Below are positions 5,667 to 38,500 of a DNA stretch of 64,000 nt, piece by piece. The translations under genes were made by a program, and so were the position numbers. Origin of the DNA: Bispira polyomma (Eukaryota); contig OZ287748.1 of assembly GCA_965649765.1 (NCBI GenBank), positions 79,484,001-79,548,000 of the forward strand, in the 5' to 3' direction. The notes under the pieces were generated by a model. It made no database searches and was not told the DNA's origin. It saw only the letters and a program-made list of their open reading frames with translations. Numbering within the stretch: the stretch's first letter is position 1; every line of letters begins with the position of its first letter.

Positions 5667-5880
5667 CAAGATTCCCGTCATTACCAGAAGGCTACACATC
5701 CCTGCTAGTAATGCAATAAAAAACAGCGACAAGAGCTTTTTAAAACAGCTCAAGAGCAGTAGACTCGATTAATGTTTTAGGTATTTCCTTTGACTCAGGT
5801 TTGTAAAGATGTTTCTTTATTGTCTAAAAGATGGCAATTTTTAGTTTCATCTTGAGTTATACCCAAATGGCATGCGTGTT
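5667..5880 (+). repeat. ~210-bp dispersed direct repeat, copy 1
   Basis: Closely similar to 15595-15804 by eye; begins with hairpin cattaccag(a/c)agg..cctgctagtaatg. Confidence 0.85.
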
Positions 5881-6024
5881 CTTCTTCAAAATTGCAAAGA
5901 AGAATTTCACCTATGGTCACCCTAACCTAAAACTTAACTATCTTAAACTCAAGATAGGGTGACCTCAAACTCAGCTTAAGGTGACCTTTCACTTTTAGCT
6001 AAGGTAACCTTATGATGCCTTTAC

Positions 6025-6400
6025 ACTGAAGACCTGGCTCATGAAACCCTTCTCCAGGAGAGGGATAGACCCGAATGAGAGGATTTACAACTAGAGGATT
6101 TCCCGGGGGAGAAGGGTGGTAGAGAATTCCTTTGGGATCCTAGTACAGAGGTTCAGGGTTCTACTCTCTACCATGCAGAAAGAACCACCCGTGGTAGCCA
6201 CCATTACCCTAACCTGTGTTGTCCAACACAATATGATGAGAACCGTTACTATAAACCAGGAAATACTACACCAAAATCAAGATGACCCATCCATCCCACA
6301 GGAAGTACTTACAGGAGATAGTAACCCACTTGTCAAAAGTAATATTTGCAGGGCAGCCAAGGAACAGAGAGCGATTCTTAATCAGCTACTTTCTGAATGA
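6025..6400 (+). pseudogene. PIF/Harbinger transposase C-terminal remnant (DDE_Tnp_4/HARBI1-like)
   Basis: WLMKPFSRR..ERIYN*RISRGRRVVENSFGILVQRFRVL..CVVQHN; internal stop, 5' truncated. Confidence 0.85.
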
Positions 6401-7984: not shown

Positions 7985-8187
7985 TTAGAAATTTTATTCA
8001 TAAATTGTATTTTTATAAAATACATACTTACCCAGTGAAACTGTGTGCTTACCGGTAGTTCGCCTGCCGGTGACGACCAATCCCTAAGAGAAAAGGGGTT
8101 ATGTACTGGTCGCCTCCGACGAGAGTCGGTCCACCGGGGACCGGGACATCACGTGACCCTGCGCGAGAAGCTGCGCACCGACCATTC
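7985..8187 (-). repeat. DIRS 3' inverted terminal repeat including the AT-rich terminal extension
   Basis: Pairs with 14861-15020; the outer part 7985-8040 is complementary to the first half of the ICR. Confidence 0.95.
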
Positions 8188-8276
8188 TGATTTACTAGAG
8201 CCATTTTGAACCAATTAATTGAAATAACACTACCCTTTGGCGTTAACCGCGGGGCAGGTTGGGTGGGACTCTAACC

Positions 8277-8375
8277 GTTTCACTGGGTAAGTATGTATTT
8301 TATAAAAATACAATTTATGAATAAAATTTCTAATTTTATTGCAATACAATTACTTACCCAGTGAAACTGTGTGCT
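8277..8375 (-). repeat. DIRS internal complementary region (ICR)
   Basis: The + strand reads revcomp(left end: ...aaatttctaa) joined to revcomp(right end: ttttattgcaatac...), i.e. the predicted circular-intermediate junction. Confidence 0.93.
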
Positions 8376-9005: not shown

Positions 9006-10925
9006 TCAGGAAGGTGAAGTATCCACAATCTGTTGAGCAGCTACAACAGGACCTAGGTAGAGGTAGTCTTTGTCTGCCCAGGCAAGGTCTTTTAAGTAAA
9101 AGTCTGTGAACGTGGAATGCGACTTCCAATGGCAGGCTGACATAATTTGATCGACCGAAACACCACCTTGGAAGGCTTTGGAGGCCGCGAAAGCTCTGAC
9201 GTCATGAGCTTTGACCTGTAGAAGGTCGAGAGAGTGATCATCAGTGAGAGTGTAACACAACTTAACTGTTTCTTTAATCCATGATGATATGGTTGACGCC
9301 TGTATTTCTTTGGTGTGGCCTTTCTTAAAGGACACAAACAAGAGCTTTCTACCTTTCCTGATGTCGGATACTTTATCCAAGTAGTATCTCAGGGCTCTGA
9401 CAGGACACAAAGATCTGTCTGCAACTAGGCTTCTGTCTAAGGCTGGAGCGAGAGCCGGGATGATCACCGGTGCGATACACTGTGGTCCTTCCCTGGCAAG
9501 TTGATTCTTGGCCAAAAAGGTCGGGGAGGCTGCTAAAGATATTTTCTCCCAGTGGCCCAGATTTCGCATGTATTCAAATATCCAATCGTGAATTTCGCTC
9601 CGACGTTTTCCTGATGCCAGAGCAAGTAAGAAGGCTGTCTTGTAGGTAAGATGCTTCAGTTCTGCTTTTCTTGACGGTTCAAAAGGAGGACAAGTAAGCT
9701 GATGTAGGACAACAGAGAGGTTCCACTTTGGTAAGGATCTGGCTGCCTTAGGCCTATCTCGATGAAAACTGGTCAACAAACGAGAGATATCCTGGTTGTG
9801 ACTAATATTCACTGTGGAACCGAGGGTATCCGCAATAGCCGTCCTGTAGCCTTCTATGGTAGAAGGTCTTAGGTTCTTGTCCGAGTAGAGGTGCATCAAG
9901 AAGTCTGCTACTTTATTTATAGGTGGGCATGTGAAGTCCACCTGCTTTTCCTCACACCATCGTTGAAAAACGGTCCACTTTGACTTGTAGACGGACCTTG
10001 TAGAGAGCCTCTGAGGTTGAGCAATCCTTTCTGCCACTGCAGGGGTGAAGCCTTGCTCTTGTAGTCCGGTACTCCTAGACACCAAGCGTGAAGGTTCAGG
10101 AATGCCGGATCCGGATGGAACCGGAGGTTCCACGGTTGTCTGAGTAAGTTGTGGCGTGGAGGTAGCAGTAGAGGGACTCGCAGTGATAGGTCCACGAGGT
10201 CCCAGAACCAGGGCATTCCCGGCCACCCTGGGGTTATGAGAAGTATCCTGCACCTGTGGGTGCGTACTTTGTTGATCACCTTGGTGATCAGAGCTGTCGG
10301 GGGATAACAGTAAACGTCTAGGTTGTCCCAAGATATGTTGAGAGCGTCCACTGCCCAGGCTTGCAGATCCGGGAGTGGAGAGACGTATATCGGTAGCTTG
10401 TAGTTCAAGTTTGTTGCAAACATGTCTACATGTGGGGTGTACCACTGGCGACACAGGTTTTTGAAGATCCGAGGGCAGAGTGACCACTCTGTCTGGATGA
10501 CTTGGTTCTTTCTGGAGAGAGCATCGGCGATGACGTTTCGACATCCGGGAATATGACGAGCTCTGAGAGTCATGGCTAACTTGTGACACAATGTTTGTAT
10601 CCTCCAGACTAGGGCACACATCTCCATTGAGTGTGTGCCTCCCTGTTTGTTTATGTAGGCTACCACAGATGAGTTGTCTGTTGACAGAAGGACTCTTTGA
10701 CCGGTGCACTGAACCTTGAAGGCCTGTAGAGCCAGATAAACGGCCTTGAGTTCTAGGACATTTATGTGTAGATCTTGTTCGGACACTGACCATCCGCCTC
10801 TTGCTGTGTGATAATCCAAGTGAGCGCCCCAACCTTCGTTTGAAGCGTCTGTAAAGAGCAATGTATTGTGCTCGAGAGGATGGAGGGAGTCTCCCACCAA
10901 CACGTTTCTTGGATCCAACCACCAT
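9006..10925 (-). CDS. DIRS tyrosine recombinase (core domain from ~10070; N-terminal part overlaps Pol)
   Basis: LALASGKRRSEIH (catalytic R), LCPVRAL, HDVRAFA (HxxR), CHWKSHSTFTDFYL (W and nucleophile Y). Confidence 0.93.
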   Translation of the reverse strand: MVVGSKKRVGGRLPPSSRAQYIALYRRFKRRLGRSLGLSHSKRRMVSVRTRSTHKCPRTQGRLSGSTGLQGSVHRSKSPSVNRQLICGSLHKQTGRHTLNGDVCPSLEDTNIVSQVSHDSQSSSYSRMSKRHRRCSLQKEPSHPDRVVTLPSDLQKPVSPVVHPTCRHVCNKLELQATDIRLSTPGSASLGSGRSQHILGQPRRLLLSPDSSDHQGDQQSTHPQVQDTSHNPRVAGNALVLGPRGPITASPSTATSTPQLTQTTVEPPVPSGSGIPEPSRLVSRSTGLQEQGFTPAVAERIAQPQRLSTRSVYKSKWTVFQRWCEEKQVDFTCPPINKVADFLMHLYSDKNLRPSTIEGYRTAIADTLGSTVNISHNQDISRLLTSFHRDRPKAARSLPKWNLSVVLHQLTCPPFEPSRKAELKHLTYKTAFLLALASGKRRSEIHDWIFEYMRNLGHWEKISLAASPTFLAKNQLAREGPQCIAPVIIPALAPALDRSLVADRSLCPVRALRYYLDKVSDIRKGRKLLFVSFKKGHTKEIQASTISSWIKETVKLCYTLTDDHSLDLLQVKAHDVRAFAASKAFQGGVSVDQIMSACHWKSHSTFTDFYLKDLAWADKDYLYLGPVVAAQQIVDTSPS

Positions 10926-12000
10926 TCGAGGTGAGCCTTAAGGAGCAGGTCCACTGGAATGAGTTTGTTTAAGGTTTCTGGGAACCTCCAGTGGTTCTTC
11001 AGGTGCCATTGTAGAGGTCGCATTTGAAGGCGACCCCCAGGTACTTGTTTTTCTGTTGACGCAAGGAGGCCGATAAGAGACATCCAGAGTCACACAGACA
11101 CCTGAGAGGTGATGAGTATCCGGTTGATCATATCCTGTAGCTTGCACAACCGGTCTGGTGTAGGTAGTACCAGTCCCCTCTGTAGATCGAACTGGTACCC
11201 GACGAAGGTAAAGTTCTGTGAGGGGATAAGTTCCGACTTTTTGTAATTGATGATCCAGCCCAAATCCGTGACGAGGGAGATCAAGGTCTCTGTGCTGGCC
11301 TGGCATTGAGCCGCTGAAGGTGCTCTGATGAGCCAGTCGTCCAAATACTGATGCATCCGAACTCCCAAAGAGAGGGCCATCAGTTTTACTTCCTTGACTA
11401 GTAGAGTGAACTCGTGAGGGGCTGTTGCTAGTCCAAATGGAAGAGCCCTGAACTGGTAGGACTTGCCTCTGTGGTGGAACCTGAGGTATTTTTCAGACCT
11501 GGGGTGAATAGGGATGTGTAGATAAGCATCCGTGAGGTCCAGTGAGGTGACCCATTCCCCCTGTTGTAGGGAGGCCCGGATAGATTCCGGGGTCTCCATG
11601 CGGAATTTGTGGACCTCGAGGTATTTGTTCATAGTACTGAGGTCTATGACCGGTCTCCACCGGTTGCCCGGTTTGGGTACGAGGAAAAGACGACTGGTGT
11701 ATCCCAACGAGTTTGTCTTTTGCACCGGTACGACTGCTTGTTTTGACAGAAGGTCCACCACACAGTTGTGTAAGGCTTAGTCTTTTTCTACTCCTGTGTA
11801 TCCGCTTATGATGTATGGGAACCGGGAGAGGGGAGGTTTTCTCCTGAATGGAAGGGAATATCCTAGTCTTATGATATCCAGTTCTCTTTGGATTATTCTT
11901 TTTGATGTCCATTCGGGCACAAAATGAAGCAAACGCGCCCCAACCCCTAAGGGCGTCTGCTCCGGTGGATTCTCATTTGGATGAGCCACCGCGGCCTCCA
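9917..12000 (-). pseudogene. DIRS Pol: reverse transcriptase, RNase H and adenine-methyltransferase-like domain, with two in-frame stops (11777-11779 TAA, 11090-11092 TGA)
   Basis: VGARL..GYSLPF, RPVIDL, SLDLTDAYLHIPI, ALPFGL, YLDD; RH motifs FTDAS, HINVLEL, TDN, NVIADALSR; MT motifs DMFAT, DAL..W, YCYPP, PGWP..PWF. The three ORF-track pieces share one frame. Confidence 0.93.
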
Positions 12001-14761
12001 CCGCGAGAGAAAGGCTTTTTGAAGCCTCCTCCTGATCCCTTGTCAGGTCCATTGCCACCACCGCCTCCACGGCCACCCCTATAGGAGTTGTTTCCCCGCT
12101 CCCGGGAAGACCGACCGCGTCCCCCCTGGTAATAGGGTGAGGACCGGTTGCCGCGGTATGAGCCCTTGGATGAGCTACTTTTGCTTTTGTAGTCCCCTGA
12201 GGAACTGCGGTTTGTGTTATAGCGTTTATCGCTCTTTATGGCCTCCTGGGCCTTGGTGACAATCGCAGGGTCGAATAGGTCAGTCGATTGGTATGGAGAT
12301 GACCTCAGGTCAGATTTTAAGTGACCTGGCCCAAATGGGTGCAGATTTGTTAACACAGCATCTCTTCTAAAGAGAATTGTGTTAGCCATCATTGTCATTA
12401 TGTCTGCGTGGAGGTGTCCCACGACCCGGGACATGCTAATCATGACCCTCTGTGCAACAGCTAGGTTTTCTTCTTTAAGAGCCGGGTCCTGTTCTTGACG
12501 GGCCTTGGTGACTGCTATTTCAGCAGCTCTAGAGAAGTGCGAGTAGTGGTTGAGCGCTGAGAGCCACTCCTTTTGTCTACCCTCCCACTGCCGCATTTGC
12601 TTTTGAGACACATGACAGGCCGGAGTCTGTCTGGGATTGTTCTGCTCTATATCCCGGAAATTGGAATTGAGCAGTTGAGGTGTAGATGACCACGCAGCGT
12701 CTTGGATGGGATAAAATTTCACATCCGACCTGGGCATTTTAAGAATTTCTCCTTGTTCAAGGCGCCTAGACTCTCCACCGGTAGGGTGAGCAGTTGTAGC
12801 GAGAGTAAGGGCCTGGAATTTTGAAGCCAAGTCTAAAGCCGGTAGCTTGAGAGATGGGGGCAATACGGAGTCCTCCGCTGAGGGCTGTGCCCGAAACAGT
12901 GACGTAGAAGAATCCTCCTTAGGAGTTTCTTTCGGTTCTGGGATGTCAAGTATTGTCCTAACAGCCTTCAAAGTTTCTACATATGTAGGGAAGTATGTAT
13001 ACTCGTCCCTAGTTGTGGTGGCGTTATCGTCCTCAGAAAAATTTTTGTGGGAACGTGAGGAATCCCGAGAGGTTCTTCCCGGTGTAGGAGAATTCAAAGA
13101 TTGGGCAATCTCCTTTGCCCTTTTCTTTGCAGCGATATACTCTGCAGAGTGTTCCTCCTCATTTTCATCTGAGACTTCGCCTGCCTCGCGTTCTGGGTCC
13201 CGTGCAGGGGGAGCCCCTAGAGAAGCTGAAGGTTTAGCTTTCTGTTTAGATTTAACCGGTTTTGCCGGTTCAGAGTCAGATGAGTCGCTTGAAGAGTCCG
13301 AGGACGACGAGTCTGGGGTTCTCTTCTTATGACGACTCTTTTTATCCTTTTTATACTTTTTCTTTTGTTCTTTCTTGAACTTCCGCTCATACCTGGCCAA
13401 GGTTTTAGGTGACATATATTCCATTTCCTGATCTGGGTCAGGGGTGGCTTTGTCCCATGATATTTCTGGCTGTGTATCCATAGGGGCCTTGGTATGGTGT
13501 AGGCCATAAGACCTATTCGGTTGTTCAAACAGAGGCTCATGGTAGCCCCTAGTATGAGCTTGTTGTTGGGTGGATGTTGATAAGACATCACCGTACTGGT
13601 CACGAGGCTGTTGAGCCGGAGTGAGGCCGCTAACTGGTGTGAGTGAGGAGACCGAGGCAAGGTCTCCGGGGGGCTGAGGCACCCTCTCACGAGTTTGGTT
13701 TTTAAGCGACGATAGTTCCTTCATGAGCGTTTGGAGTAGTAGATCAGACTTTGCCGCCTGCTGTTGGAGCAAATTGTCGGTACGCTGCTGTTGCAGGTCC
13801 ATTTTTCCGTGCAGAGTTCAGTGGTGAGCTGATTCCTCAAGTTATCTACGAGGGCACGCGACTGTGTCATCGGTGTAGCAGGGGGTAGTGAAGGTAGTGG
13901 CTGAATACCGGGCATACCCGGTGCCGGGCCTAATACTGTCACATTTTCCAACGGTATCTGTATATCTACCCTCTGAGGATAAGGTGGCTGAAAACCACTA
14001 GTTGAAGCCGTGGGCTGAGGTTGTTCAGCAGGTTCATCCAGGAGGACGTTGGCTTCAAAGTCTGAAACCTCCATGGCTTCTGCCCCGGTGTCGGTTAGAC
14101 CAGTAGCACCACCGGACCGGTTAGGAGAGTCTAGTAGGGTATCTTCTGGGGATGCCAGAGGGGCCCGTTTCTTTTCCTGCCGTTGTCGGTAGGTGACTCT
14201 TGATTTGATTTTTGCTCGTTGCTCATCTGTGAGGCTATCACAAAATTTGCAAAAATCTGAAGGATTCTTGGCACAAGGATCCTGTCCTTTTCCAGCCTGT
14301 CGGCAGGTAGGACACCACCCATGATCATCCCATGAGGCAAACAAATGGCCACAACGGCCCTGCTTTTGCCCAGATTTGGTGCCACTAGCTTGTCTAGGAG
14401 GCTTGGGAGGAGGGGTGGCAACACAGAAGACTAAAAGGGCAGCACATATCAGGGATATGGCCACAATCGTCAGGATAGCCAGGGGAGGAAGCTGTGGTGA
14501 GGTAGACTGTCCAGAGGCATTGGCTCTACACTCCACTGTGCTGAGTAAACTCAGCCATAAGAAGACCCAGAGAACTGAGCTTCTGCTTTCCCCTGAGGGT
14601 GAGAGTACCCCCACAAGATGCAACAAACTCGGAAACCGAGTAGCCATCTTGTATCCAAGGAAGATGAGGCCGGAGCTGAAAGCTCTGTAAAACCCCATAA
14701 ATCTTATCCAGGTGGGACTAAAAAAGTCCAGCATGATCCATATACAAAGAGCTAACTCCAT
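11973..14761 (-). pseudogene. DIRS Gag-like ORF1, split by one frameshift near 13800
   Basis: Cys/His cluster CGH..DDHGWCPTC..DPC..CKFC, low-complexity middle, RGG-rich C-terminus; ORFs 13721-14761 and 11973-13802 overlap in different frames. Confidence 0.8.
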
Positions 14762-14860
14762 GATAACAATTCACTTAAAAAAACCTGTAACAGTCTTTAA
14801 GAATATCCAAATAAAGTTCGTAATCTGAACACGATGTCTTCAAAATGGCGACCAGTAAAA

Positions 14861-15037
14861 GAATGATCGGTGCGCAGCTTCTCGCGCAGGGTCACGTGAT
14901 GTCCCGGTCCCCGGTGGACCGACTCTCGTCGGAGGCGACCAGTACATAACCCCTTTTCTCTTAGGGATTGGTCGTCACCGGCAGGCGAACTACCGGTAAG
15001 CACACAGTTTCACTGGGTAATTGTATTGCAATAAAAT
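14861..15037 (-). repeat. DIRS 5' (element-left) inverted terminal repeat
   Basis: 14861-15020 is the reverse complement of 8028-8187 with 1 mismatch in 160 bp. Confidence 0.95.
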
Positions 15038-15594: not shown

Positions 15595-15804
15595 CAAGAT
15601 TCCCGTCATTACCAGCAGGCTACACATCCCTGCTAGTAATGTAATAAGAAACAGCGTCACAAGCTTTTTAAAACAGCTCAAGAGCAGCGGACTCGATTAA
15701 TGTTTTAGGTACTTCTTTTGACTCAGGTTTGTAAAGATGTTTATTGTCTAAAAGATGGATATTTTTAGTTTCATATTGAGTTATGCTCAAATGGTATGTG
15801 TGTT
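15595..15804 (+). repeat. ~210-bp dispersed direct repeat, copy 2
   Basis: Matches 5667-5880. Confidence 0.85.
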
Positions 15805-18800
15805 TATCTTTTATCTTTGTTTTACACTTTTTTTAGACAAAAATCTTTTATTTTGTTTCTTGAAGTATCTGCACAGACGTTGCAGAAGTTGCATTCTGCA
15901 TATGGTGAATAACTGCCTGTGTCATACAAGTTTAGGAAGCCAACACAAAGCAAGAAAAAACTTGTAAAATGCATAATATATTTTTATTATTTCATTAACT
16001 GAAATAAACATTCTTAATAATAAGCAATATTACTCCTAGCTTTGCATAATTCTAAAGAAATTACTATACAAGGCATTCAAATTAAAGTTATAGCAAACAT
16101 CATAAACTCTAAATCAAACACACATTTGTACAAGTAGCTTGGTAGGAATGGACTTGTTCCAAAATTCTCCACTGTTGAGGTAAGTTAAGTATACTCCTAC
16201 AAAATACACTAAATTATTGAGAACATTTTGGAGAAAAAACTACTAACAATAGCGAAGAAAGGGGATCAAAAAAATTAAGTAAAAATTTAGCTTATTACAA
16301 AATCCCTTTGTGGTGACATTTTAAGATCAGAGATTATTTTAAAATTTCTTTATTATGCTTTTTCAAATTTATACTATTTTATAATTCAACCTTATCGTAT
16401 ATAATTTACTATTGGTATTCATTACACTTGGAGAGATGCACAGAGATTATAAAAATTTTCACTGAACTTAAAAGTCTGCAAGTATATCACGGCTAGCCAA
16501 ACTGCCACAAGATGGTCCACTTTTCTGAATTGCAGCACATGCATAGTGTGTACACATAGTACAATACATGCTAGTTACTAAATATGTTTTGGACAGATGA
16601 ATTATACTTTCTGCCTAGTCTTTAATACTGCAAGTTTTGTAACTGTTACTAATCTTAACATTTTAAACACTTAATTTTTTTAGATGTCAGAAAGATACTT
16701 AACACTAAAAACAACAATAACGTAATATACATTATTATACATAATAATAACCTACTATTGATCTTAACCATTTACTATTCACCTAACCAATTATTTATAT
16801 TGACCTAATGCGAGATCTCCTGAAGATTTTTTTTTACTACCGTTGTAACTTAAAGTTGTTACTTGAAATACAGTTTTTAAGAGAAATCGGTGAAACTTTT
16901 AAAAATATATGAGATTGTGTGTTACAATTTGTTCAACCACATCACTGACATAGACACACTACCAAAACTTTACCTTGTATCTTAACATACATACCTAGAA
17001 CTGAGATTAACTCTAAGCTTGAACCCTTGGTGAATACAGTTCCTATAAATACTGTAATTGTTTTACTGTAAAGTGTTTAGACATAATGTACACAAACGAC
17101 TTAATACATGTATTTCACTTCAATGACTGGTACCCCTGCTTGCCTCAGGAATTTGGACGTTGTACATGTTAAGTTAAAACCTACTTAAGTTTAAATCGGT
17201 CAAGTTAAATATCAAACTTCATGTGGACATTAATTAAGATCCAAAGCAAACAGTTATTGGTAGTACCTTTGACTGATTCCTTAATATTTAACTTAGCAGA
17301 GTTCAACTCTGCATCTATCTACAATTACATTTTGTACTGTCTTACTGAATGAAGCATGTCTGTAAACAAACTAGGAACAAAATGAAAACTCATTAATATA
17401 TTTCCATAAAATACATATACATCTATGAAAACAAATATGGCAATTTGTTCTTTGTTTAAAAACAATAAATATCTACTAAAAATCTCATAAAAACTCTGCT
17501 TTAAAATCTCTTAACAAAGTCCTGCTTTGCCAGTTTATTAACGTAAGTGTTCACACGGCTGTCAATCCGTTAACACTCTACTCTAATCTTCCAATTTTTC
17601 TGTTACTCATATTTTACACTATTTTTAAGGGAACTACAAACACAACTCATTGCTAGTATTCAATTGATGATTTCTGTAAAGCACCTTTTTTTATATCTGC
17701 GTACAGCACAATTTACTGAATTTTGTAGCTTCAAACAAATACAATTTCGTTAAATTAGCGATAATATGCAAAGCCAAGACAAACAGCCAATCAGATTGCA
17801 GCAATCCCTTAAGCACAACATGTTCACAAGATTTTTTGCGTAAAGTTTTGCTTAACAAAAATGTTCAAAGTGGCTTATCAATTAGAAAATGTGCTCAACG
17901 GCTGAAAATAATGTTCAACACCTTGCCACTCGAATACTCCTATTGGCTCGACAGATTAGGATTCCTCTGTGTCTTTTGAATCCAAATTTGAAGAATATAT
18001 TGAATATTTAAGCCAGCCTTAGAGTAGATAATAAAGAATTGACAGCCATTTGGTGAGTCCCTCAAATCATTCACACAATAGTGCTATGTGACAATAAAAT
18101 GGTAATATTAAATACATATATGTCTTTACAAAAATAAAAGTCTTTTAAAACTATACATTAATAATGCATACAGATTTATATATAAAACTATGCAGCAGAT
18201 TATATACTACATTAAAACGTTAATAGTTATTGTTAAAGCAATTTGAAGATTCTGCTAGTTACAAAGTAGTAAGCTTAAATCATCACAGTTTCAGCAGTCA
18301 GCAATATACAATACAAAAACAAACAATACTACCCGCTTTCAAGGGAATTAATTCATTCATCGCAACTGTGATTTCAATTCCAAAATGCTTTAAAAATGGC
18401 TAAATAACCACTTAAAAATATGAAATAACTACTAGATAACTAATTGTAAAAATTATATACATAATTAACATTAACTCACTTTCAGAAACATTATATAACT
18501 TAGTAACACATTTAAAAACTTACAAGTAACTTCTACACTAAAAAAAAACAAAACATACATTAATTACTTCTTACCAGAGTTCATGGGAACGGAATTTTGA
18601 TCTTGATACGATTGATACATTTAGACGCAAACTTGCAAAGAAGCTAAATGAAAAGCATTACTGTAAGAAAACAGATTTAACAGAATTATATTAATAATTA
18701 ATTTAGAAAATCATAACTCATGAAGCAGAAATCCTTAAAGCTGTGCTACCTAATGCTCAGAATAAATAAATTTGAAGACCATCATTAGATTTGTCAGAAG

Positions 18801-21030: not shown

Positions 21031-23526
21031 TTATATCCGGAACTCCTGTTCTGAACCTGAAGAGGCTGGATGAGTGATACTGCCACTGGTTCGCCGAGAT
21101 CTGTGCTGAGCGATACCGTTCTGATGATGATGTGCGAGTAGATTGTGAGGTGTATTCTGGCCTGAACTGCTACTGCCCAGACCCTTGGGGGTGACGATAG
21201 GGCTAAAGGATGGGCTTCTGTGCTGTAGAGGGGAGAGAGAGTTCTCAAACTCTGGGGATAGAGGAGTGGTTGTAAAAGAAGACTCGTAACTCATGGGGGA
21301 TTTAGGAAGACTTGCCATAGAGGTCAGTTGGCTGGTCCGCGCCGAGTTCACAGTTTGATTTGAATTGGACGAGCTTGAGTCTCTGCGTTCTCGCACTTGA
21401 TTGTTTATAACTGGCTTGTGCTGACTAGAAAACATGGGCCGGGCGCGGGGCGGGGCGTCTGTAATGATGGGTGGAGGAAATGCCATGGGCCGCATCTGCT
21501 GCTGGGACGTGTGAAAACCATTCGTATTCTGTGAAACAATTTTGGTGGGTACCTTCTTGGGTTTAATACTGTCGTCTTTAAGTCTTGCTATCTCGGTAAA
21601 CACATCAGCTAGGGGCTGATACTGAGGACCCCAGTCTAATAAGTAGTCCCAGTTATAGGAGCCGCTAAACTCCTCCTCACTGTTGATCACACTGGACAGG
21701 GAGCCAGCGGTGGACTGATCTTGCTCGTGGAAGTTGAACTGGTTGGAGGTTTCTATCACTGGGGCAGCCGTCTCCTCACCCCCTCCTCCTCCTCCTCCTC
21801 CCTCCTGATTATACCCGATGTCCAGCCCGTCACCTTCACCGCCACCCTCATCTGAAAACTGGTGCATGCTCTCCACACTAGCGTTTATATTCTTACCTTC
21901 TGTACCCCCTTTCAGTTTGCTTGCGTCGATACCGAGCCGTGCAAGATACTCTTGATGGTTCTGAGCGGAACGTTCTGATATTGCATCATCGTCTTGCTGA
22001 ATGCCCGAGTCTGGTAAGCGAAGTTCCTGGTGATCCAGCGGAGTGGCATTGATCATCCTGATCTCTTCATCCTCTGGGATATCTATGTCTGCTGATCCCC
22101 GCCCACTGGACATGGAGGTTGAATGTTCCGACATAGAAGATCCGACCATCTGGCCGGGCAGGTGGTGCGGATACATGTGAGCCGCATCGTTGTAAGACGG
22201 CGGTCCGTAGCCTTGAGGGGTGACATGGTCCATGCTGCTATTGAAGGAGCTTTCAAACTGTGCCGGATTGTCCCGTTTATGCTTCCACTTCTCTCTACCT
22301 CTGAGGAACATGACCACAATGGCTACAACTAAGATGGCTGCAATTAGTAAGAAGACTATGACCAGGATGAGTGGCGTGCCTGATAGACCTCCACCTTCTT
22401 GAGGGCTAGCATCTGTGGTGAAAGCACATCCTTCACAGGCACGATCTACTCTTAGGCTCACCACAGTGGTGTCCTGAATACTCTCTGGATACCCTACACT
22501 GGCCACGACAGTCAATACCACCTCATCCTCAGTCAATGCACGGCGCGATCGATTTCTGCTCGATCTTCTCTTGCGAGCAGAATTGTCGGAATTTTGCAAA
22601 TCTTTCTTCACAGATATGATACCGTACATACCGGTAGATGAAGCCCCAATAGCGAAGTACTTATTGGGAGTATCAAAACTAAACTGTACTACGCCGATAA
22701 GATCACTTAAACTGACATCAGATGAGGCACCAGTTATGTCAGCATTCTCCACATCAATAAAGCCCACTTCGTCTCCTTTCTTAGCATTACCCTTAACAGT
22801 GAACTGAAAGTCTGTGTCCACAAACCGGGGTATAAACAGTGGTTCCACTTTGACAACTGCTGGTACTTTGGTGAACCGGCCTCCCGCGTCACTTGCCTTG
22901 ACAAAGAACTGATACTGGGAAGCGTTTCTGTACTCCAACTGTCTAGTAGTGGTAACAAAGCCTGTCCTCGCATCCACCCCAAAAGCACCTTTAGCTTCCA
23001 AAAGCTCATATGTCACAACACCAAACATCCCAGAGTCATCGTCGTTAGCGTGAGCAGAGAACACATAGGTTCCAGCGCCTAGTTTCTCCCGCACTTTCTC
23101 CCAGTACATCATGACGGGGAACCTTGGTGCAAACTCGTTCACATCGGTCACATTGACAATGACTGTGGCAAAGGCCGACTGTTTTGGGTAGAGGATGCTT
23201 GAGTCCATGGCAATCACTGTGAGCCTGTGGCTCTGGTGAGTTTCGTGATCCAGACTGGTACGGAGTTTGATCCAGCCCGTGTCGGAATCAATTTCAAAGT
23301 TATTGTCATCGTTTCCCGAGGCTATCCTGTACTGTACTTTACCGTTGACATTGATGTCTGCATCTGTGGCAATTACTTGTACTATGTGTTCTCCTTTCAG
23401 GTTGTCCTCAGATATGGAGGTGGCGTATTCTTTGGCCTCAAACACTGGTGGGTTATCATTCACATCGGTTACTGTAATACTGACTATAGCCTGAGACTTC
23501 ATTGGGGGAATGCCGCGATCTGACGC
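21031..23526 (-). CDS. ds: dachsous terminal coding exon: last cadherin repeats, TM helix, cytoplasmic tail ending EQEFRI
   Basis: tcttccag acceptor at 23527; ORF track 21031..23616; Ds-specific tail motifs. Confidence 0.95.
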   Translation of the reverse strand, partial: ASDRGIPPMKSQAIVSITVTDVNDNPPVFEAKEYATSISEDNLKGEHIVQVIATDADINVNGKVQYRIASGNDDNNFEIDSDTGWIKLRTSLDHETHQSHRLTVIAMDSSILYPKQSAFATVIVNVTDVNEFAPRFPVMMYWEKVREKLGAGTYVFSAHANDDDSGMFGVVTYELLEAKGAFGVDARTGFVTTTRQLEYRNASQYQFFVKASDAGGRFTKVPAVVKVEPLFIPRFVDTDFQFTVKGNAKKGDEVGFIDVENADITGASSDVSLSDLIGVVQFSFDTPNKYFAIGASSTGMYGIISVKKDLQNSDNSARKRRSSRNRSRRALTEDEVVLTVVASVGYPESIQDTTVVSLRVDRACEGCAFTTDASPQEGGGLSGTPLILVIVFLLIAAILVVAIVVMFLRGREKWKHKRDNPAQFESSFNSSMDHVTPQGYGPPSYNDAAHMYPHHLPGQMVGSSMSEHSTSMSSGRGSADIDIPEDEEIRMINATPLDHQELRLPDSGIQQDDDAISERSAQNHQEYLARLGIDASKLKGGTEGKNINASVESMHQFSDEGGGEGDGLDIGYNQEGGGGGGGGEETAAPVIETSNQFNFHEQDQSTAGSLSSVINSEEEFSGSYNWDYLLDWGPQYQPLADVFTEIARLKDDSIKPKKVPTKIVSQNTNGFHTSQQQMRPMAFPPPIITDAPPRARPMFSSQHKPVINNQVRERRDSSSSNSNQTVNSARTSQLTSMASLPKSPMSYESSFTTTPLSPEFENSLSPLQHRSPSFSPIVTPKGLGSSSSGQNTPHNLLAHHHQNGIAQHRSRRTSGSITHPASSGSEQEFRI

Positions 23527-26500
23527 CTGGAAGACAATATAAAAAGATAGTTGTACAAAATACAAAATGTACATGTATTCACTCAGTAGAATGGTTATAC
23601 CTCCACTAGGCTTCACACTGCCCCAAAAGCGTAAGCCTGCAGAAATGTTTCTTACACTTTTGGGGCATAGCTATGCACTCCAAGAACATTCAATATGTTC
23701 GGCCTTGGCCAATGCCCTATCCGTCCCAAGTTTGGTCAAAATTGGTTCAGTAACTCTTGCCCTTTCCAGCAGGAATTTTTTTTCGACTTTTGGCCCAGCA
23801 ATGCATTGGCAGAGGTATGCACTCTACTATAATGTATTGGGTTTTTTCTTGGTCAATGCCCTAGGCCAAATTTTTTCAAAATTACTTCAGTAGTTTTTTT
23901 TTGTAATCCTATTAACAAACCGCCTCACAAACAGACAAATGTGAAAATGGAGGTAATAACTCAATTACAGCCCAATTACAAAGTATTAATGAATGGTCCT
24001 TGGTTGGGTTTCAACTGTTTCACAGTTTTTAAGACAAATTTTTAAAACTGTAAATCTTTTGAAATTTTTCTATGATATAATCTACTAATAATTGAAACAA
24101 GACACAAAAAGTCTACTCACTTTAATAGCAAGCGTGTACCGAGGTAGAGTTTCCCTGTCTAGACTGCCAATCAACACAAGGTCCCCAGTACTAGAGGAGA
24201 TCTGGAACATGCCGTGTTCATTCCCCGTCACAATACTGTACACCACTTTACTGTTGTCATGTGTGGTGTCTTCATCATGGGCGCGGGCCTGGACAACAGT
24301 GTAACCGGGATGTTCATCTTCACTGATCTCCTCACTGAAAAGATGTATAGAGAGAACTCATTAACAAAAGAGAGACTCTATCAGTAACAGTAAGGCCCCA
24401 GACAACAATGATTATTTTTACTGATTCCCTCACTAAATAGATATAAACAGAGTATTGATGTCTTACCTGGATATACTTTTGGTGAGCTGAGGGGCGTGGT
24501 TATTGATGTCTTACCTGTATGTACTTTTGGTGAACTGAGGGCTGTGGTTATTGATGTCTTACCTGTATGTACCTTTGGTGAACTGAGGGCTGTGGTTATT
24601 GATGTCTTACCTGTATGTACTTTTGGTGAGCTGAGGGACGTGGTTATTGATGTCTTACCTGTATGTACTTTCAGTGAACTGAGGGCTGTGGTTATTGATG
24701 TCTTACCTGTATGTACTTTTGGTGAACTGAGGGGCATGGTTATTGATGTCTTACCTGTATGTACTTTTGGTGAACTGAGGGGCGTGGTTATTGATGTCTT
24801 ACCTATATGTACTTTCAGTGAACTGAGGGCTGTGGTTATTGATGTCTTACCTGTATGTACTTTTGGTGAACTGAGGGGCATGGTTATTGATGTCTTACCT
24901 GTATGTACTTTTGGTGAATTGAGGGGTGTGGTTATTGATGTCTTACCTGTATGTACTTTTGGTGAACTGAGGGGCATGGTTATTGATGTCTTACCTGTAT
25001 GTATTTTTGGTGAACTGAGAGGTGTGGTTATTGATGTCTTACCTGTATGTACTTTTGGTGAACTGAGGGGTGTGGTTATTGATGTCTTACCTGTATGTAC
25101 TTTTGGTGAACTGAGGGGTGTGGTTATTAATATCTTACCTGTATGTACTTTTGGTGAACTGAGGGGGTGTGGTTATTGATGTCTTACCTGTATGTACTTT
25201 TGGTGAACTGAGGGGCGTGGTTATTGATGTCCACCACTTGTACCCTGACCACCTCTACTGCTGACAATGACGGTACTCCTCTGTCCCGGGCTGTCACCAC
25301 TAGGTCTATACTGGGGTTACTGGGGTTGTAACGCACTGTCTGGTTGGTGTAAATCACTCCTGGAAAAACAGGGTCGGTCAAAATCAAAGGCGTTAAACTT
25401 GAGTCACTCATCATTAATCACATGCTATTAAACACTTCTCGACAGAACTTTAAAATAAAACTCTCACAAAAGTATTACGTTACTATTTATATTTTAATGT
25501 TCCAAATATACAAAAATTAATGTAGACAGATAAAGTGAAAATAGCTCAGCATAAAATATTATCTCTAATAAATAAATACACATGTTATATCAATATCTGT
25601 AATCAGCAAAAACACAACCATATCAGTCGATATGCATATTGATAGAATAATTTCAACAACTATGTCTATTACCTGACCAAATAAGCAAGACAATAACTAT
25701 TTAAATCAGAAGTAAATATTGATATATTGGTGAAGCATTTATTTTTCAATAATCATTTAACATCTCTACCTGTCAGATCATCAATGTAGAAGCCTTGTGT
25801 AGATATCATACTGTAACGAACATCTGCATTCTCCCCATCATCAGCATCTGAAGCTGTTACCGTGGTAACCTCAACTTCTCCTGCAGTATCCTCATCTATT
25901 GATACCTAGCAATACAACAGGTATATCTTGGATCACACATTTATCGATATATGATGTCTTGCTTACACCAAAAAGAATGTTATAAATAAAAGTCCCAAAT
26001 CAAATTTATCACCCAACTGCAATATTCCAAGTGGCAAGTTAATAAACAACCTTGTGGACATGGCTGTGTGGACATCTTCAAGCTTTGCTCCTCAATTAGA
26101 AGAATGGCAGGTTAGTGGTGTGTGATAATCACTGCTTGTTTGCTGTACTTGGGCAGTCAAGAGAAGGTAAACTAGTGCTTTGAATAGTCTAAAGCCTCTA
26201 CCGTCCAAACTTTTATCACTCAAAGTTTTAATTTAGGAACTTCTGTTTTGTATTTATTCGCCTCTTCTATTTTATGGATTTCTATTATCTGAACAAAATC
26301 ATGCTCTCCTAACATGTTTTCGATAATGGAGGTTCTACTACACCAGACAATGGTAGATAAATGTACTGAATATAAATTTAAATACAAACACAAATAAAAT
26401 GGAGATAAGCTGATAAGATTGGCCAGTAAACACTGGTGGGTTTAAATTTTAAAAATTCAAAATATTTAAAATAATCCCAATGAACGTTATAGCTAATTGA

Positions 26501-29500
26501 AATCGAGAATAGCTGACATTAGAATTTTACCTGATAAGACTGCTGAGTAAACACAGGTGGGTTGTCGTTCTCATCAGTGACATTGAGGATGACCTCAGTA
26601 CTAACCGTGTGGTTCTTGTCAAACACCTGTACTTTCAGTTTATAAGCCTGTGTGACCTCGTAGTCCAGAGCCTTGGCCACAGAGATCTTACCACTGTATG
26701 GGTCAATACTGAACTGGTCATTGTAGTTACCACCCGGTGAGAAGTCATACTGTAACACTGGGTCCAGGTCCTCATCTGTGGCGGTTACTTGGAGGACAAA
26801 CGTACCGGGCTCTGTGCCTAGAGTGAACACAAGCAGTGTAGTATTGGCATCAACTTGTAACATAGACAGTGTAGTACTGGATTGACTTGTAGCATAAACA
26901 GTGTAGTACTGGCATATACTTGTAACATAGACAGTGTAGTACTGGATTGACTTGTAGTATAAACAGTGTAGTACTGGCATCAACTTGTAACATGGACAGT
27001 GTAGTACTGGCATTAACTTGTAACATGGACAGTGTAGTACTGGATTGACTTGTAACATGGATAGTGTAGTACTGGCATTAACTTGTAACATGGACAGTGT
27101 AGTACTGGCATTAACGTGTAACATAGACAGTGTAGTACTGGCATCAACTTGTAACATAGACAGTGTAGTACTGGATTAACTTGTAACATAAACAGTGTAG
27201 TACTGGATTGACTTGTAACATGGACAGTGTAGTACTGGCATTAACTTGTAACATGGACAGTGTAGTACTGGCATTAACTTGTAACATGGACAGTGTAGTA
27301 CTGGCATTAACTTGTAACATGGACAGTGTAGTACTGGCATTAACTTGTAACAGACAGTGTAGTACTGGCATTAACTTGTAACATAGACAGTGTAGTACTG
27401 GATTAACTTGTAACATAGACAGTGTAGTACTGGATTGACTTGTAACATGGACAGTGTAGTACTGGCATTAACTTGTAACATGGACAGTGTAGTACTGGCA
27501 TTAACTTGTAACATGGACAGTGTAGTACTGGCATTAACTTGTAACATGGACAGTGTAGTACTGGCATTAACTTGTAACATGGACAGTGTAGTACTGGCAT
27601 TAACTTGTAACATAGACAGTGTAGTACTGGATTGACTTGTAACATAAACAGTGTAGTACTGGATTGACTTGTAACATAGACAGTGTAGTACTGGATTGAC
27701 TTGTAACATAGACAGTGTAGTACTGGATTGACTTGTAACATAGACAGTGTAGTACTGGCACTAAGTTGTAACATAGACAGAGTGTTGTATTAGTATCTGT
27801 ACTCAATTTAGGCAAACAATACTGGCATTGTACTCAATGTACGTAAACAGTGCAGTACTGGCATTGTATTTAATGGAGGTAATCAGTGTAATACTATCAT
27901 GGACTTGTACCTAATGGAGGTAAAAAGTACTAGCATTGATTTATGACATAAACAATGAAGTACTAGCATAAATTTGTACTTCATTAAGTTGAATATTATC
28001 ATTAATGTTTAATAATTAAAAATTACATTGTAAGATAAAACAATGTCACTATAATAGAACAGGAATTATAAAATAAAATTCTAGGAAGATGAATTTTTTT
28101 TTTCAACTCAAATATACAGGCAACAGAAGTCAATATTAAAAGACATTTATTTACATTTATCTACACAAGTACAATATCTTCCTGAAAATGTAATCCACAA
28201 TCGTATTAATTAGTATTAATAGATTATATGTAAAACATATACAAGCCAGACGATTCCAAATAACAAGGCTATCAAATAGATAAGAAGTTATTTGATGATA
28301 AATAAAGTGCATGACTTACTTTCTTTTACTGGGACTGGATCATATATTTGGAAAAATGGTTCGTGATCATTGACATCAATGACTTGAATCTTTAACAAAC
28401 AGGTCCCAGTCATTGGAGGTATTCCTGAATCTATCGCTTCAATCTGTGCAACAAATATAACACAATAGTTGTGGATATGTGGTAAATATTGCAAAGAACA
28501 TGAGAATTAATTTGTTTTTTAGTGAAAGGACACACAAAATTTTATATTAACGGAAAGGAACAGCCGTAAAATTCAAATTAAAACGGCTTTAAAACTGATC
28601 TAAAAGTAAGAACATACACATGTGTTTTAATATTATCTGGCTTTATTTTAAGTATGCTCACACCTGAGGTGCTACTGTTTTAAAATATATCAAATCAGGC
28701 CAAAGTATCATACCTCCAGCTTCCATGAGCTGACAATCTCTCTGTCCAAGATGATATTGGTCTTAATGATGCTTGTATTGTTATGGAACACAAAAGCTGG
28801 TTTGGCCAGTCCAATGGTGGCCCCACTTTTAATACTGTAGGTAATTCTCCCGTTCAGTCCAGAGTCAAGGTCAGTGGCACTCACTTGAGTTACGTATGTG
28901 TTCTTGTTGTTACCTAAACAAAATAAAATTTGAATTTATTTGGGTTTTACGTCGCTTTTAACAGCATTGGTCATATTGCAAATTAGTGGTGGGGGAAACC
29001 ACCGAACTGGGGCAAGTACCTTACAAACTTTCTCACATGAAGATTCGATCCCTAGAGGTGAGAGGCCATTATATTGACAATCCCAAAGTAATGGTAAAAC
29101 TACAATTAGTTGTTAAAATAAACACGATAAATTTCTTTCATAAACAAAACGTTATACCACATTAGAGTTTGAACCTACATTTTTACGGTGAATACTTTCA
29201 CATTTAAGTTTATACTTTTTTTCTGCCCTTTAGTACTGTCACAAGATTTCAATAAATGTATTTCATCACCTCAGCCAAGGAAGAAATTGTTTGTTTTTTT
29301 TTGTTTTTTTTTTTTGGTTTGCTTATCACCTGGATTACACATAAAGTACTGAACCAATTTTATGAAATTTGGACCCAGGTAGGATTTTTATTTTACTTTG
29401 TGGCATCTTGGCAGGGATATGCACTCTACTGCTCGCTCTTCTAGTTAGAATTAGTTACTACAAACCTTCCCAGACTGCAGACACGTATCTATCCTGGCTG

Positions 29501-35500: not shown

Positions 35501-38500
35501 TGTCACACATAAATCAACAGTTACACTAACCTGACCACTGTTTTATCCATCAAAGCCCTTAATTTCCTTTTAAAATCCACCTTTTAGTCATTGTTTTGTG
35601 GATTACATGGGCGCGGCCATGTTTGATCTTGTTGGTGTGATTAACATACGGTATAGCATCCATTATTCTCCCCGTTTCAAATTCAAACGATTGCAATTAA
35701 GGTAAACGACAACTTTCTTTGTTCTTATCATCACAGACTTTACACTTACCAAATATTTGCACATCTGAAGAAACTATTGTTAATCAATGGGATTACCTCA
35801 AATCCAATTAAAAATCACCAGTGTGTATAAAAAGAGGGTAAAAATAAGTCTAAAGTCATTGAGTCTTATAATTTCTATCTGCACTCATCTTTATGATAAC
35901 ATGGCAACTAAAAGGAAAGTGACATCTAAACCAGAAATATCAGGCACTGTTAGAAGTGGAAGGGGGAGGGAAAAAAAAGGATATTGCTGAAAAATATGGA
36001 GTACCACTCAATACTCTCAGCACTTGGATAAAAAATCAAGACAAAATTAAACAGACCTTTCAAAGTGGTCATCAAAACCTATCTAGAAAGAGAGTGAAAA
36101 TCGGAAAATTTGAAGATGTCAGTGCTGCTCTTTTCAAATGGTTTTCAAATAAAATGGAACAGGGTGCTGCTATAAGTGGTCCTCTAATGATAGAGAAGGC
36201 CCAGAAATTTGCTGACGACCTAGGCATTGAGGACTTTAAGTCTTCTCAGGGATGGCTGACCAGTTTTAAGGAGAGGTATAACATCAGGATCAGATCCATC
36301 CAAGGGGAAGAGAGGGCTGTGAAGATACAGGATGTAGATGCCTGGCACCAGACAGTGTGGACGGAAATATTACAGGAGTATCAAGCCAGACACATCTACA
36401 ACTGTGATGAGTCTGGCTTGTTCTACAAGATCCTTCCAAACAGAACACTGGCTTTCAAGGGCCAGAAATGTTCTGGAGGGAAGTTGTCTAAGGATAGGAT
36501 AACTATACTTTTTTGTTCCAATATGGATGGCTCTGATAAGGTGCCACTTCTATGCATTGGGAAATCTAAGAAACCAAGGGCATTCAGAGGTCATCTTACT
36601 CTTCCTACAGAGTACAAAGCCAATGCTAGGGCTTGGATGACCGCTGACTTGTTTAAAGAGTGGCTACAAAAGCTAGACAGTAAGATGGGCCTCCAGCAGA
36701 GAAAGATAGCCCTCTTAATGGACAATTGTGCTGCCCACCCCAAATCTGGGGGCCTGAAGAATATAAAGATGTTTTTCCTGCCTCCTACTTGCACCAGCAT
36801 CCTCCAGCCTATGGACCAGGGAATCATTAGGTGTTTCAAGCATTATTACAGAGCCTCAATCAATAAGAGACAGATTGAGGCTTTAGACAATGGCTCTGCC
36901 TTTAGCCTGACAATGCTGGATGCTCTAAGAGAGTCCCAGCTTGCTTGGGCTAAAGTTTCACAAGAGACCATTGCTAACTGTTGGCTCCATATGGCTTTCA
37001 GGGAACACGAATCACCTAGTGAATTTATCCCACCAAGTGATTCTCTGGTGTCAGGAATATCCAATGAGGACTTCAATGAATATGCAAATATGGACAATGA
37101 GCTGATCACCAGTGATATGCCCACAGATGAGGACATCGTTAAGGATGTAAAAGGACCCGAGGATGAGGAGGACAATGATGAGGATGAGGAGCCCATAGAA
37201 GAGCCTATCCCTTCTCATGATGAAGTAGAGAAGATGTGTCACAAGATGAGAAGATACATTGAGTCTGCAGAGAATGCTAGACAAGAGCTGGACTGTCTAA
37301 CAAAAATTGAGATTTTAGTGACCAAAACGAAAAATAGTTCAAAGAAACAGAGCTCTATATCTGATTTCTTTAAGCATATGTAAAACTGTGACCTCTGTAT
37401 GTTTTCTTAATTTTTTTAAAATTTGTCCACTTTAAACAAAAATGAGCTGTCGACCTTAATTTTAAATATGTAGATTAGAGTAGGGATTCAATTTTGCGTA
37501 AGAGGTATGTTCATAATATGTAAAAGTGCTTGTATAAAGATGTTTTCAGTTGTTTTAGGTGTCCTTTAATGTTTATATGTTGAAACACAATAAAAGTAAT
37601 GATTTGTATGATAAAGTTTATTTTATTTTGCTTTTATTGTTGAGTTTTGCGATAAATCACCTATTATCGCCCATTCACCTACAATCTCCGACGGACTTGA
37701 CACAAAGCCCACGAAAATTATTATTCGAATTTAGCGTAATTCGAACCAATTACCTCGAATTTTTGTGATTCAACTTACACAGAGTCTACTGTAGTGTCAT
37801 TACATTTCGACCAATCAAATAAGTCTTATGACCGAAAATGCGTAAATTTACCTCCTATATACAAACAAGCGCCCTCACGGGATGCTTAATAAGACTTGAT
37901 CTACTGTTAACTTCTACTCAGTTAAACTTAGTATTTAGAATGTTGAGACAAATTGGTCCTTTTTACAAAGAAATTCAACTTATATTGGTTCTAGCAACAG
38001 AGGAGCTACTGTAAACAGATTAAAATGGTTTGGGGAATAGTAGATTTGTGTCCAATTTTACACTGCTTACTGTATGTTTTGAGAATACTTTACCTGTAAT
38101 AATGTACTGCTTCTGTTCTTCTCTGTCTAACGAGACTCTAGCTTTAAGTTCTCCACTATCTGTGTCCAGACTAAACTTGTTGTCCAGCACTCCATCTGGG
38201 ATCAAGTACTTCAGCACAGCGCCATCACCTACATGAATATACAACATACAGAGTACTGTGGTCGGCTGTGGTCAACTAGGTACAGTTCTTCAGGATCCAT
38301 CTTTTCAGATGATCTCCACTTGGACTCAAATCTGAAATACCAAAGAGAAGTTCCAAGACCAATGTTACTACATACAAAGCTGTAAACCTTTGTCAGCCCC
38401 CATATCTGGCCTCACTGTTGTCTTTCAGCAGGCTTACCACGGGAAACAGAATTTCATTATCTTATACCGGGACTAGTAAAACGGATTGGATCCTATGCCT

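Follow-up and report, generated by a model that had tools for sequence, protein, structure and literature searches.

A DIRS1-like retrotransposon family of Bispira polyomma whose ORF1 protein carries a predicted N-terminal membrane anchor

A stretch of 64,000 nucleotides from Bispira polyomma (contig OZ287748.1, positions 79,484,001 to 79,548,000; hereafter the window, numbered from its first letter) contains a 7-kb DIRS1-like retrotransposon on the minus strand, extending from ~15036 to 7985. The first open reading frame (ORF1) of this element, its Gag frame, begins with an N-terminal extension comprising a predicted signal peptide, a short polar loop, and a predicted transmembrane helix, followed by a basic tract and a Cys/His finger. 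We find that this extension is real, selected, and shared beyond the B. polyomma genome. The topology it suggests, with the loop in the lumen and the finger in the cytosol, is likely.

In the window copy, in-frame ATGs of ORF1 are located at 14761, 14734, 14698, and 14647, with none between the last of them and the finger. The first Cys of the finger is codon 137, i.e. 136 codons precede it. The first of two hydrophobic stretches, at 14575-14534, reads VLWVFLWLSLLSTV. The parts of the extension are listed below, where A, B, and C denote subfamilies of the family, KD19 is the best 19-residue Kyte-Doolittle mean, and dN/dS is the ratio of nonsynonymous to synonymous substitution rates.

14648..14761, minus strand: ORF1 codons 1-38, hydrophobic leader between the two conserved ATGs, the first being at 14761; ATG and frame retained in A, B, and C
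14528..14647, minus strand: ORF1 codons 39-78, from the second conserved ATG (14647) through the hydrophobic core (14575-14534) to V-E-C; predicted signal peptide with putative cleavage after codon 78
14483..14527, minus strand: 15-residue polar loop, predicted luminal, with an NAS sequon at 14521-14513 found in subfamily A only; dN/dS 0.5-1.7
14417..14482, minus strand: 22-residue predicted transmembrane helix, KD19 3.03, no charged residue
14354..14416, minus strand: Pro/Lys/Arg tract after the helix (PPPKPPR), a positive-inside signal; three K/R and no D/E in the 18 residues past the helix, no K/R in the 15 before it
14240..14353, minus strand: Cys/His finger, C137-C174, presumably zinc-binding; 409 relatives at E ≤ 0.001, dN/dS ~0.08

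A first-pass annotation, made from the sequence alone, had proposed the anchor. Its coordinates for the hydrophobic stretches, helix, sequon, PPPKPPR tract, and last ATG (14647) all check in the window sequence. The ORF length of 346 residues that it gave is a product of a frameshift near 13,810; uninterrupted copies have 915-933 codons, counted from the first ATG.

To follow the extension through the family, the genome (1.04 Gb in 75 contigs) was scanned, yielding 446 candidate copies, 40 of which were scored, and 40 further stretches were added to the best DNA matches; copies were chosen by their likeness to the window, and the counts are not a random sample. The family is divided into subfamilies A, B1, and B2 and an older subfamily C, whose reverse transcriptase (RT) is ~83% identical. 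Of the 30 best DNA matches, window included, 28 have an open frame between ATG 14647 and the finger, and in 27 it is already open at ATG 14761. Across A, B, and C, 83 distinct insertions were compared: 68 combine at least 100 open codons with a helix of KD19 ≥ 2.7, and the other 15, many of them C copies, show early stops or deletions, apart from one that reflects an anchoring slip. A Met within the last 25 codons before the finger occurs in a single insertion (1/83), and on these counts the idea that the window copy had merely lost an ATG before PPPKPPR was rejected. Neither a family-wide ATG at this site nor family-wide stops or frameshifts in the extension were found, and the lack of an ATG between helix and finger, noted in the window by the first-pass annotation, holds in 82/83 insertions as well. 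Both ATGs (14761 and 14647) are conserved in A, B, and C, with a purine at -3 and G at +4; beside the ATG at 14647 singled out by the first-pass annotation, the earlier one is therefore conserved too. Indels between subfamilies are multiples of three inside the extension and single-base in the leader upstream of it. These observations confirm that the extension is a family trait, above chance.

The extension evolves as coding sequence. For codons 1-115, dN/dS was 0.43-0.54 in all six subfamily pairs (bootstrap upper bounds 0.64-0.99), and Fisher tests on single copy pairs gave p values of 0.0001-0.047 (7/7). By part, the ratio was 0.19-0.42 for the helix (estimable in five of six pairs), 0.5-1.7 for the loop, 0.08-0.09 for the finger, and 0.05-0.07 for the C-terminal core. 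The other two frames showed ratios of 0.82-0.96 and 1.66-3.06 with 3-13 stops (three pairs tried); this frame specificity rules out conservation owed to another reading frame. When a real copy was left to drift neutrally in silico (20,000 runs per divergence level), an open frame, a helix, and the absence of charge survived jointly in 0.49% of runs at 0.25 substitutions per site, in 0.04% at 0.4, and in at most 0.005% at 0.6 or more. In the helix, T is enriched at codon position 2 (13-16 of 22 codons). Because selection is confined to the Gag frame and neutral survival is low, we read the extension as translated protein in this frame; its constraint is looser, as is usual for signal and membrane segments. 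Very probably it is both translated and inserted into a membrane.

We also considered whether the extension could be skipped. Between 15020 and 11000, A/B copies share five conserved donor-like sites, of which three fall within the terminal repeat; the extension contains none of them. Upstream of 14761, no conserved ATG was found in the 13 readable of 21 copies, the ATG at 14947 in the window not being shared, and a splice skipping the extension would therefore leave the finger without a start. Among deletions of at least eight bases in 70 loci, none had GT-AG ends. Two runs of unknown kind, searched as contigs, contained no joint across the extension and are uninformative on splicing.

To place the anchor among relatives, a profile of the first 205 ORF1 residues was searched against 1.84 billion proteins, returning 409 proteins at E ≤ 0.001. 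The finger could be anchored in 141 of the best 150 of these; 127 of the 141 carry a Met no more than 27 residues ahead of the finger, and in 126 it is an ordinary Met right before the finger, P0008 being set aside since its Met lies inside the helix. An upstream KD19 of at least 2.5 was found in P0002 and P0008 alone among the 141, with P0151 a longer member of the P0002 cluster and P0122 a borderline case (KD19 2.04). All four are gene-caller products, known as proteins only; P0002, P0151, and P0008 come from other samples. Forty further loci of the same genome included three copies of a family designated D1, in which the layout recurs and the terminal repeat begins in the same way. In family D, of which D2 copies were also found, the RT is 62% identical over 66 residues. 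The extension of this distant family, like that of the clusters P0002/P0151 and P0008, matches the layout seen in the window but shows little likeness in sequence. In the D2 copies (L185-L188), ATA stands at the first ATG of D1, and ~26 extra basic residues precede the hydrophobic core; the part before the signal core varies freely. Among the remaining 37 loci, at least 14 have a Met ~10 codons before the finger and none has an open hydrophobic extension. The same genome also provides a natural control, a decayed DIRS family (loci L104-L138) that keeps the ordinary layout, the finger being directly preceded by Met. The anchor thus marks a lineage in the minority, found also in at least two other samples; in most relatives the protein starts at the finger.

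A profile of the post-finger region ranked P0008 first of 46 (E 1e-5) and P0151 only sixth. No relatives were found in metagenome or viral contigs with the finger alignment, nor in viral contigs with the RT; the RT scan of metagenomes yielded a single distant element at two loci (35% identity), and its ORF1 start has no hydrophobic stretch. Word-indexed protein searches returned nothing or P0122 alone, and an Atlas search with the N-terminus gave no usable match. In a finger tree built by a quick search from 146 sequences over 75 columns, excluding 5 proteins of 151 and 4 loci of 14 that had no anchor motif or were too short, the anchored state needs three changes, none forced by strong branches, and the unanchored P0115 and P0134 group with families A-D. 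A single origin of the anchor is neither shown nor excluded by this tree.

Ten N-terminal sequences were compared for motif, loop, and charge. In nine of them a V-x-small motif follows the hydrophobic core (VEC, VEG, VEA, VYA, VQA, VES, or VET); it is absent in P0122. These nine share one layout, namely a core of 11-14 residues, V-x-small, a loop of ~15-20 residues, a helix with KD19 2.4-3.4, a basic tract, and the finger, with 2-6 K/R past the helix and 0-2 before it. In D1, P0151, and P0008, V-x-small follows a Met at a distance of 17-23 residues, and such a length together with an n-h-c pattern is that of an ordinary signal peptide. The anchor with a cytosolic finger, as first proposed, is thus supported as a prediction, with a selected extension and a fitting charge bias. 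Of the two stretches taken for membrane helices, the second retains this role, while the first looks like a cleavable signal peptide. A type I protein with a cleaved signal peptide is the probable topology, judging from these sequence features. The NAS sequon, present in the window, had suggested a glycosylated loop; it occurs in 45 insertions, all of subfamily A, but in 0/17 of B and 0/8 evaluable insertions of C, and is absent in D1, D2, P0151, and P0008. With a loop dN/dS of ~1, a functional glycan was rejected.

The remainder of the element was annotated as follows.

14860..15036, minus strand: 5' inverted terminal repeat; arm 14860-15020 is 99% complementary to 8028-8188, and other copies align from ~15036
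11973..13817, minus strand: remainder of ORF1 past the frameshift near 13,810, with a low-complexity linker, basic tract, helical C-terminal core, and RGG-rich tail
9917..12235, minus strand: pol, with reverse transcriptase, RNase H, and a methylase-like end; two stops in the window copy; Pfam RVT_1 E 8e-22, RT_RNaseH E 1e-5
9006..11972, minus strand: tyrosine recombinase frame, overlapping pol and sharing the ORF1 frame; two stops in the window copy; Phage_integrase E 7e-6
8274..8370, minus strand: internal complementary region, complementary to both outer ends of the element
7985..8188, minus strand: 3' inverted terminal repeat, from complementarity and the alignment of other copies

The window copy is broken by the ORF1 frameshift and by the stops in pol and the recombinase frame. 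With inverted terminal repeat arms (161 nt, 99% complementary), an internal complementary region, RT/RNase H, and a tyrosine recombinase overlapping pol, the element is DIRS1-like by each structural test with a clear result. It shares the repeats, the internal complementary region, ORF1, a pol of RT, RNase H, and a candidate methylase-like end, and the overlapping recombinase ORF with the DIRS1-like layout of tyrosine-recombinase retrotransposons (PMC3266345, PMC7192593, PMC9210276), but its ORF1 opens with a predicted signal peptide and membrane helix. The end of pol contains DMFA and YCYPP, which we take to be methylase-type motifs, and gave no Pfam methyltransferase match. No protease was found in the element. 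The pol frame (12235-11777) overlaps the end of ORF1 by ~260 bases, and a pol Met near 12050 is retained in A and B, not in C. The recombinase frame begins directly behind the Gag TGA (11972-11975) in the frame of Gag and is stop-free for ~980-1020 codons, spanning all of pol, in 4/6 A/B copies besides the window (loci L175-L179, L193). A Met at its codon 21 is present in A, B, C, and D copies and is a simpler start than readthrough of the Gag stop, which would fuse anchored Gag to recombinase. A Gag-to-recombinase splice found no support: A/B, C, and D have no conserved donor-like site in common. In ORF1 itself, a basic tract at residues 463-487 lies behind ~260 low-complexity residues. The dimerisation domain of LAP2alpha derives from DIRS ORF1, a protein lacking clear homology to retroviral Gag (PMC4495291). 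No Pfam match to a LAP2alpha-type domain, which vertebrate DIRS elements have, was found in ORF1; with the C-terminal core, this dimerisation domain (2v0x) took Foldseek ranks 2 and 5 without significance (E 0.85 and 1.3; model pLDDT, the predicted local distance difference test, 57). Fold searches with the core otherwise returned generic helical hairpins only (best Z 7.8), with no Foldseek match at E ≤ 0.001, and sequences of solved structures gave no match to it.

The copy sits downstream of the last exon of a large cadherin gene, which we take to be Dachsous-like, whose minus-strand exons (21031-23670, 26519-27175, 39936-42074) encode the repeats, a membrane helix, and a cytoplasmic tail. 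Introns of this gene contain a plus-strand open frame of 486 codons (35923-37383), presumably a Tigger/pogo-type transposase, and a tandem array of a 48-base unit, open in two frames (24309-25280). A DDE_Tnp_4 (Harbinger-type) transposase fragment lies at 6095-6400 (E 0.001). Two copies of a repeat of ~220 bases (5667-5886 and 15595-15810; 87-93% alike) flank the element away from its ends and probably represent another repeat family.

A full-text literature search, with subscription papers, Repbase notes, and supplements lying outside it, turned up no description of a signal peptide or membrane helix in a DIRS ORF1. Term searches within PMC3266345 and PMC9210276 gave no match for "membrane" or "hydrophobic", and those within PMC7192593, PMC4157794, and PMC6681497 found no such ORF1. 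The first-pass annotation had likened the extension to the glycoGag of murine leukaemia virus (MLV), which starts at a CUG upstream of ordinary Gag, is made besides it, and is chiefly described as a type II protein with three N-glycans on extracellular Gag, a type I form also being cited (PMC12530543). Both are in-frame N-terminal extensions that add a membrane helix to Gag. The DIRS family, however, has an AUG start, no second start for a soluble form, a predicted type I orientation with cytosolic Gag, and a sequon that is not conserved; by charge counts alone, its bias points opposite to the type II topology. The likeness is a poor one, and the glycoGag label is not supported. Nor is the anchored ORF1 an sORF2/FAST protein. 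These FAST-like proteins, which MDG1-group long terminal repeat (LTR) retrotransposons encode, are separate, ~60-110 residues long, and often myristoylated, and are recognised by a separate ORF of 60-210 residues, a cytoplasmic part below 150, MGxxxS/T, and at least three K/R in the 15 residues after the helix (10.1101/2025.03.14.642691). Shared features are a single helix predicted N-out C-in, a short ectodomain, basic residues after the helix (K, R, and K within 15 residues in the window protein), and an element without env, whereas the DIRS helix belongs to a Gag of ~930 residues (915-933 codons) behind a signal-like segment. The MGxxxS/T motif is found neither at the conserved starts in A, B, and C nor at the D1 starts, and an internal MGQLSW in P0008 does not fit it.

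Other parallels concern function or position. The closest functional model is Ty1 Gag, where co-translational targeting of retrotransposon RNA and Gag to the endoplasmic reticulum (ER) seeds assembly; unlike the protein proposed here, Ty1 Gag enters the lumen and returns, and Ty1 is an LTR element with protease and integrase (PMC3945221). An ALOG-bearing DIRS-class element of Ectocarpus likewise has a predicted membrane protein at its 5' end, but as a separate predicted seven-helix ORF in an element with direct repeats (PMC3537659). Bdelloid LTR elements carry small membrane ORFs as ORF3 (PMC5408684).

We slightly favour a mechanism in which Gag, anchored in the ER as a type I membrane protein and facing the cytosol, would gather element RNA at a membrane-bound assembly site. 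From the sequence, the signal recognition particle (SRP) would bring the ribosome to the ER, signal peptidase would cut after V-x-small, and the helix would stop transfer, leaving a stub of 15-20 residues in the lumen, while the basic tract would hold the finger, along with the remaining 800 residues, on the cytosolic side. By analogy, the mRNA, being also the genomic RNA, would be translated on ER-bound ribosomes beside anchored Gag, which may bind it via the finger and RGG tail and oligomerise via the helical core. As the search of the element revealed no protease, Gag would remain anchored unless one from the host releases it. Ty1 RNA, carried to the ER by SRP and nucleating assembly sites there, offers a precedent for such a purpose (PMC3945221). 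That ER-surface assembly is what the anchor serves is, on this analogy, an evenly balanced proposition.

Several points weigh against this interpretation. The precedent is loose, as Ty1 Gag enters the lumen and does so without a discernible signal or helix (PMC3945221). The topology is drawn from hydropathy windows and charge counts, and the AlphaFold model of the N-terminus, although helical over both hydrophobic segments (with a low-confidence helix at 93-115), is poor (pLDDT 49). In A, B, and C, the putative signal is a long one, at 40 residues from the second ATG and 78 from the first. V-x-small arises in 15-43% of shuffles per sequence, was picked post hoc, and comes from homologous sequences; as a cleavage site it is suggestive only. 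For codons 1-38 alone, dN/dS (0.34-0.78) is non-significant with intervals that include 1, and so is the D1 versus D2 comparison (0.54, p 0.11), in which the finger was excluded owing to a frameshift in the D2 copy used. Finally, most relatives are without the anchor, and it is thus not needed for DIRS replication in general.

Among other roles for a membrane-inserted Gag, delivery to the nucleus is unlikely. Here, Gag would slide from the ER via the pore membrane to the inner nuclear membrane, bringing the RNA-protein complex, and perhaps the recombinase, to chromatin. Inner nuclear membrane proteins of yeast have a layout of helix, linker, and nuclear localization signal, and a tiny luminal stub suits such transport; ORF1, with its small predicted stub and the basic tract at 463-487 behind a low-complexity linker, resembles them, and the stop-free recombinase frame behind the Gag TGA would give an anchored recombinase upon readthrough. 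This frame, however, has its own Met at codon 21, no splice donor joining Gag to recombinase is conserved across the families, and ~800 cytosolic residues together with oligomerisation would hinder passage. Distinctly unlikely is an exit through the secretory pathway, in which Gag would travel to the plasma membrane or multivesicular bodies and RNA would leave in vesicles or enter neighbouring cells without an envelope protein, a transfer between cells that the first-pass annotation had already suggested. The predicted helix orientation, short ectodomain, and basic residues match some of the sORF2/FAST features, and the anchored families have many young copies (96-100% identity), the unanchored copies fetched being decayed. 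Young copy number is uninformative on transfer between cells, though, and the ectodomain of ~15 residues evolves nearly neutrally. The protein is no small separate ORF and lacks MGxxxS/T, and PTAP, PPxY, or YPxL motifs were not found in the one full ORF1 scanned.

An uncleaved first core, forming a helical hairpin (or three helices with the leader) or clipped by a host intramembrane protease that releases soluble Gag or limits its amount, is improbable. A, B, and C do have a long leader of partly hydrophobic character (KD19 up to 1.4), and the low-confidence model has three N-terminal helical stretches, but a core of 11-14 residues precedes V-x-small in nine of ten sequences and the signal is of ordinary length in three lineages. 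That the extension is an untranslated or spliced-out 5' leader, T-rich and merely resembling hydrophobic protein, with Gag starting downstream, is highly improbable: AT-rich leaders of several unanchored relatives do translate to mildly hydrophobic stretches (KD19 up to ~2.1), yet selection here is confined to the Gag frame, T clusters at codon position 2, 82/83 insertions offer no downstream ATG, and deletions show no GT-AG ends. A broader reading joins the two routes beyond the ER surface and remains rather doubtful, namely that this DIRS clade replicates on a membrane track: type I anchored Gag, directed by its signal peptide, would move along the ER with the RNA complex, either towards the inner nuclear membrane, perhaps fused to recombinase by readthrough, or out of the cell in vesicles.

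The anchored lineage, with an ORF1 predicted to be an integral membrane protein and offering no alternative start, gives a direct handle on the site and manner of DIRS assembly and on whether ORF1 acts as a capsid protein, as the anchor can be tagged, removed, or swapped and the same genome also contains anchor-free relatives. A role of the anchor in nuclear delivery or cell exit, if borne out, would represent a new use of host membranes by a retroelement without envelope or protease. Should the membrane-track reading be true, this clade would be the first among retroelements to have an integral membrane protein as its sole Gag.

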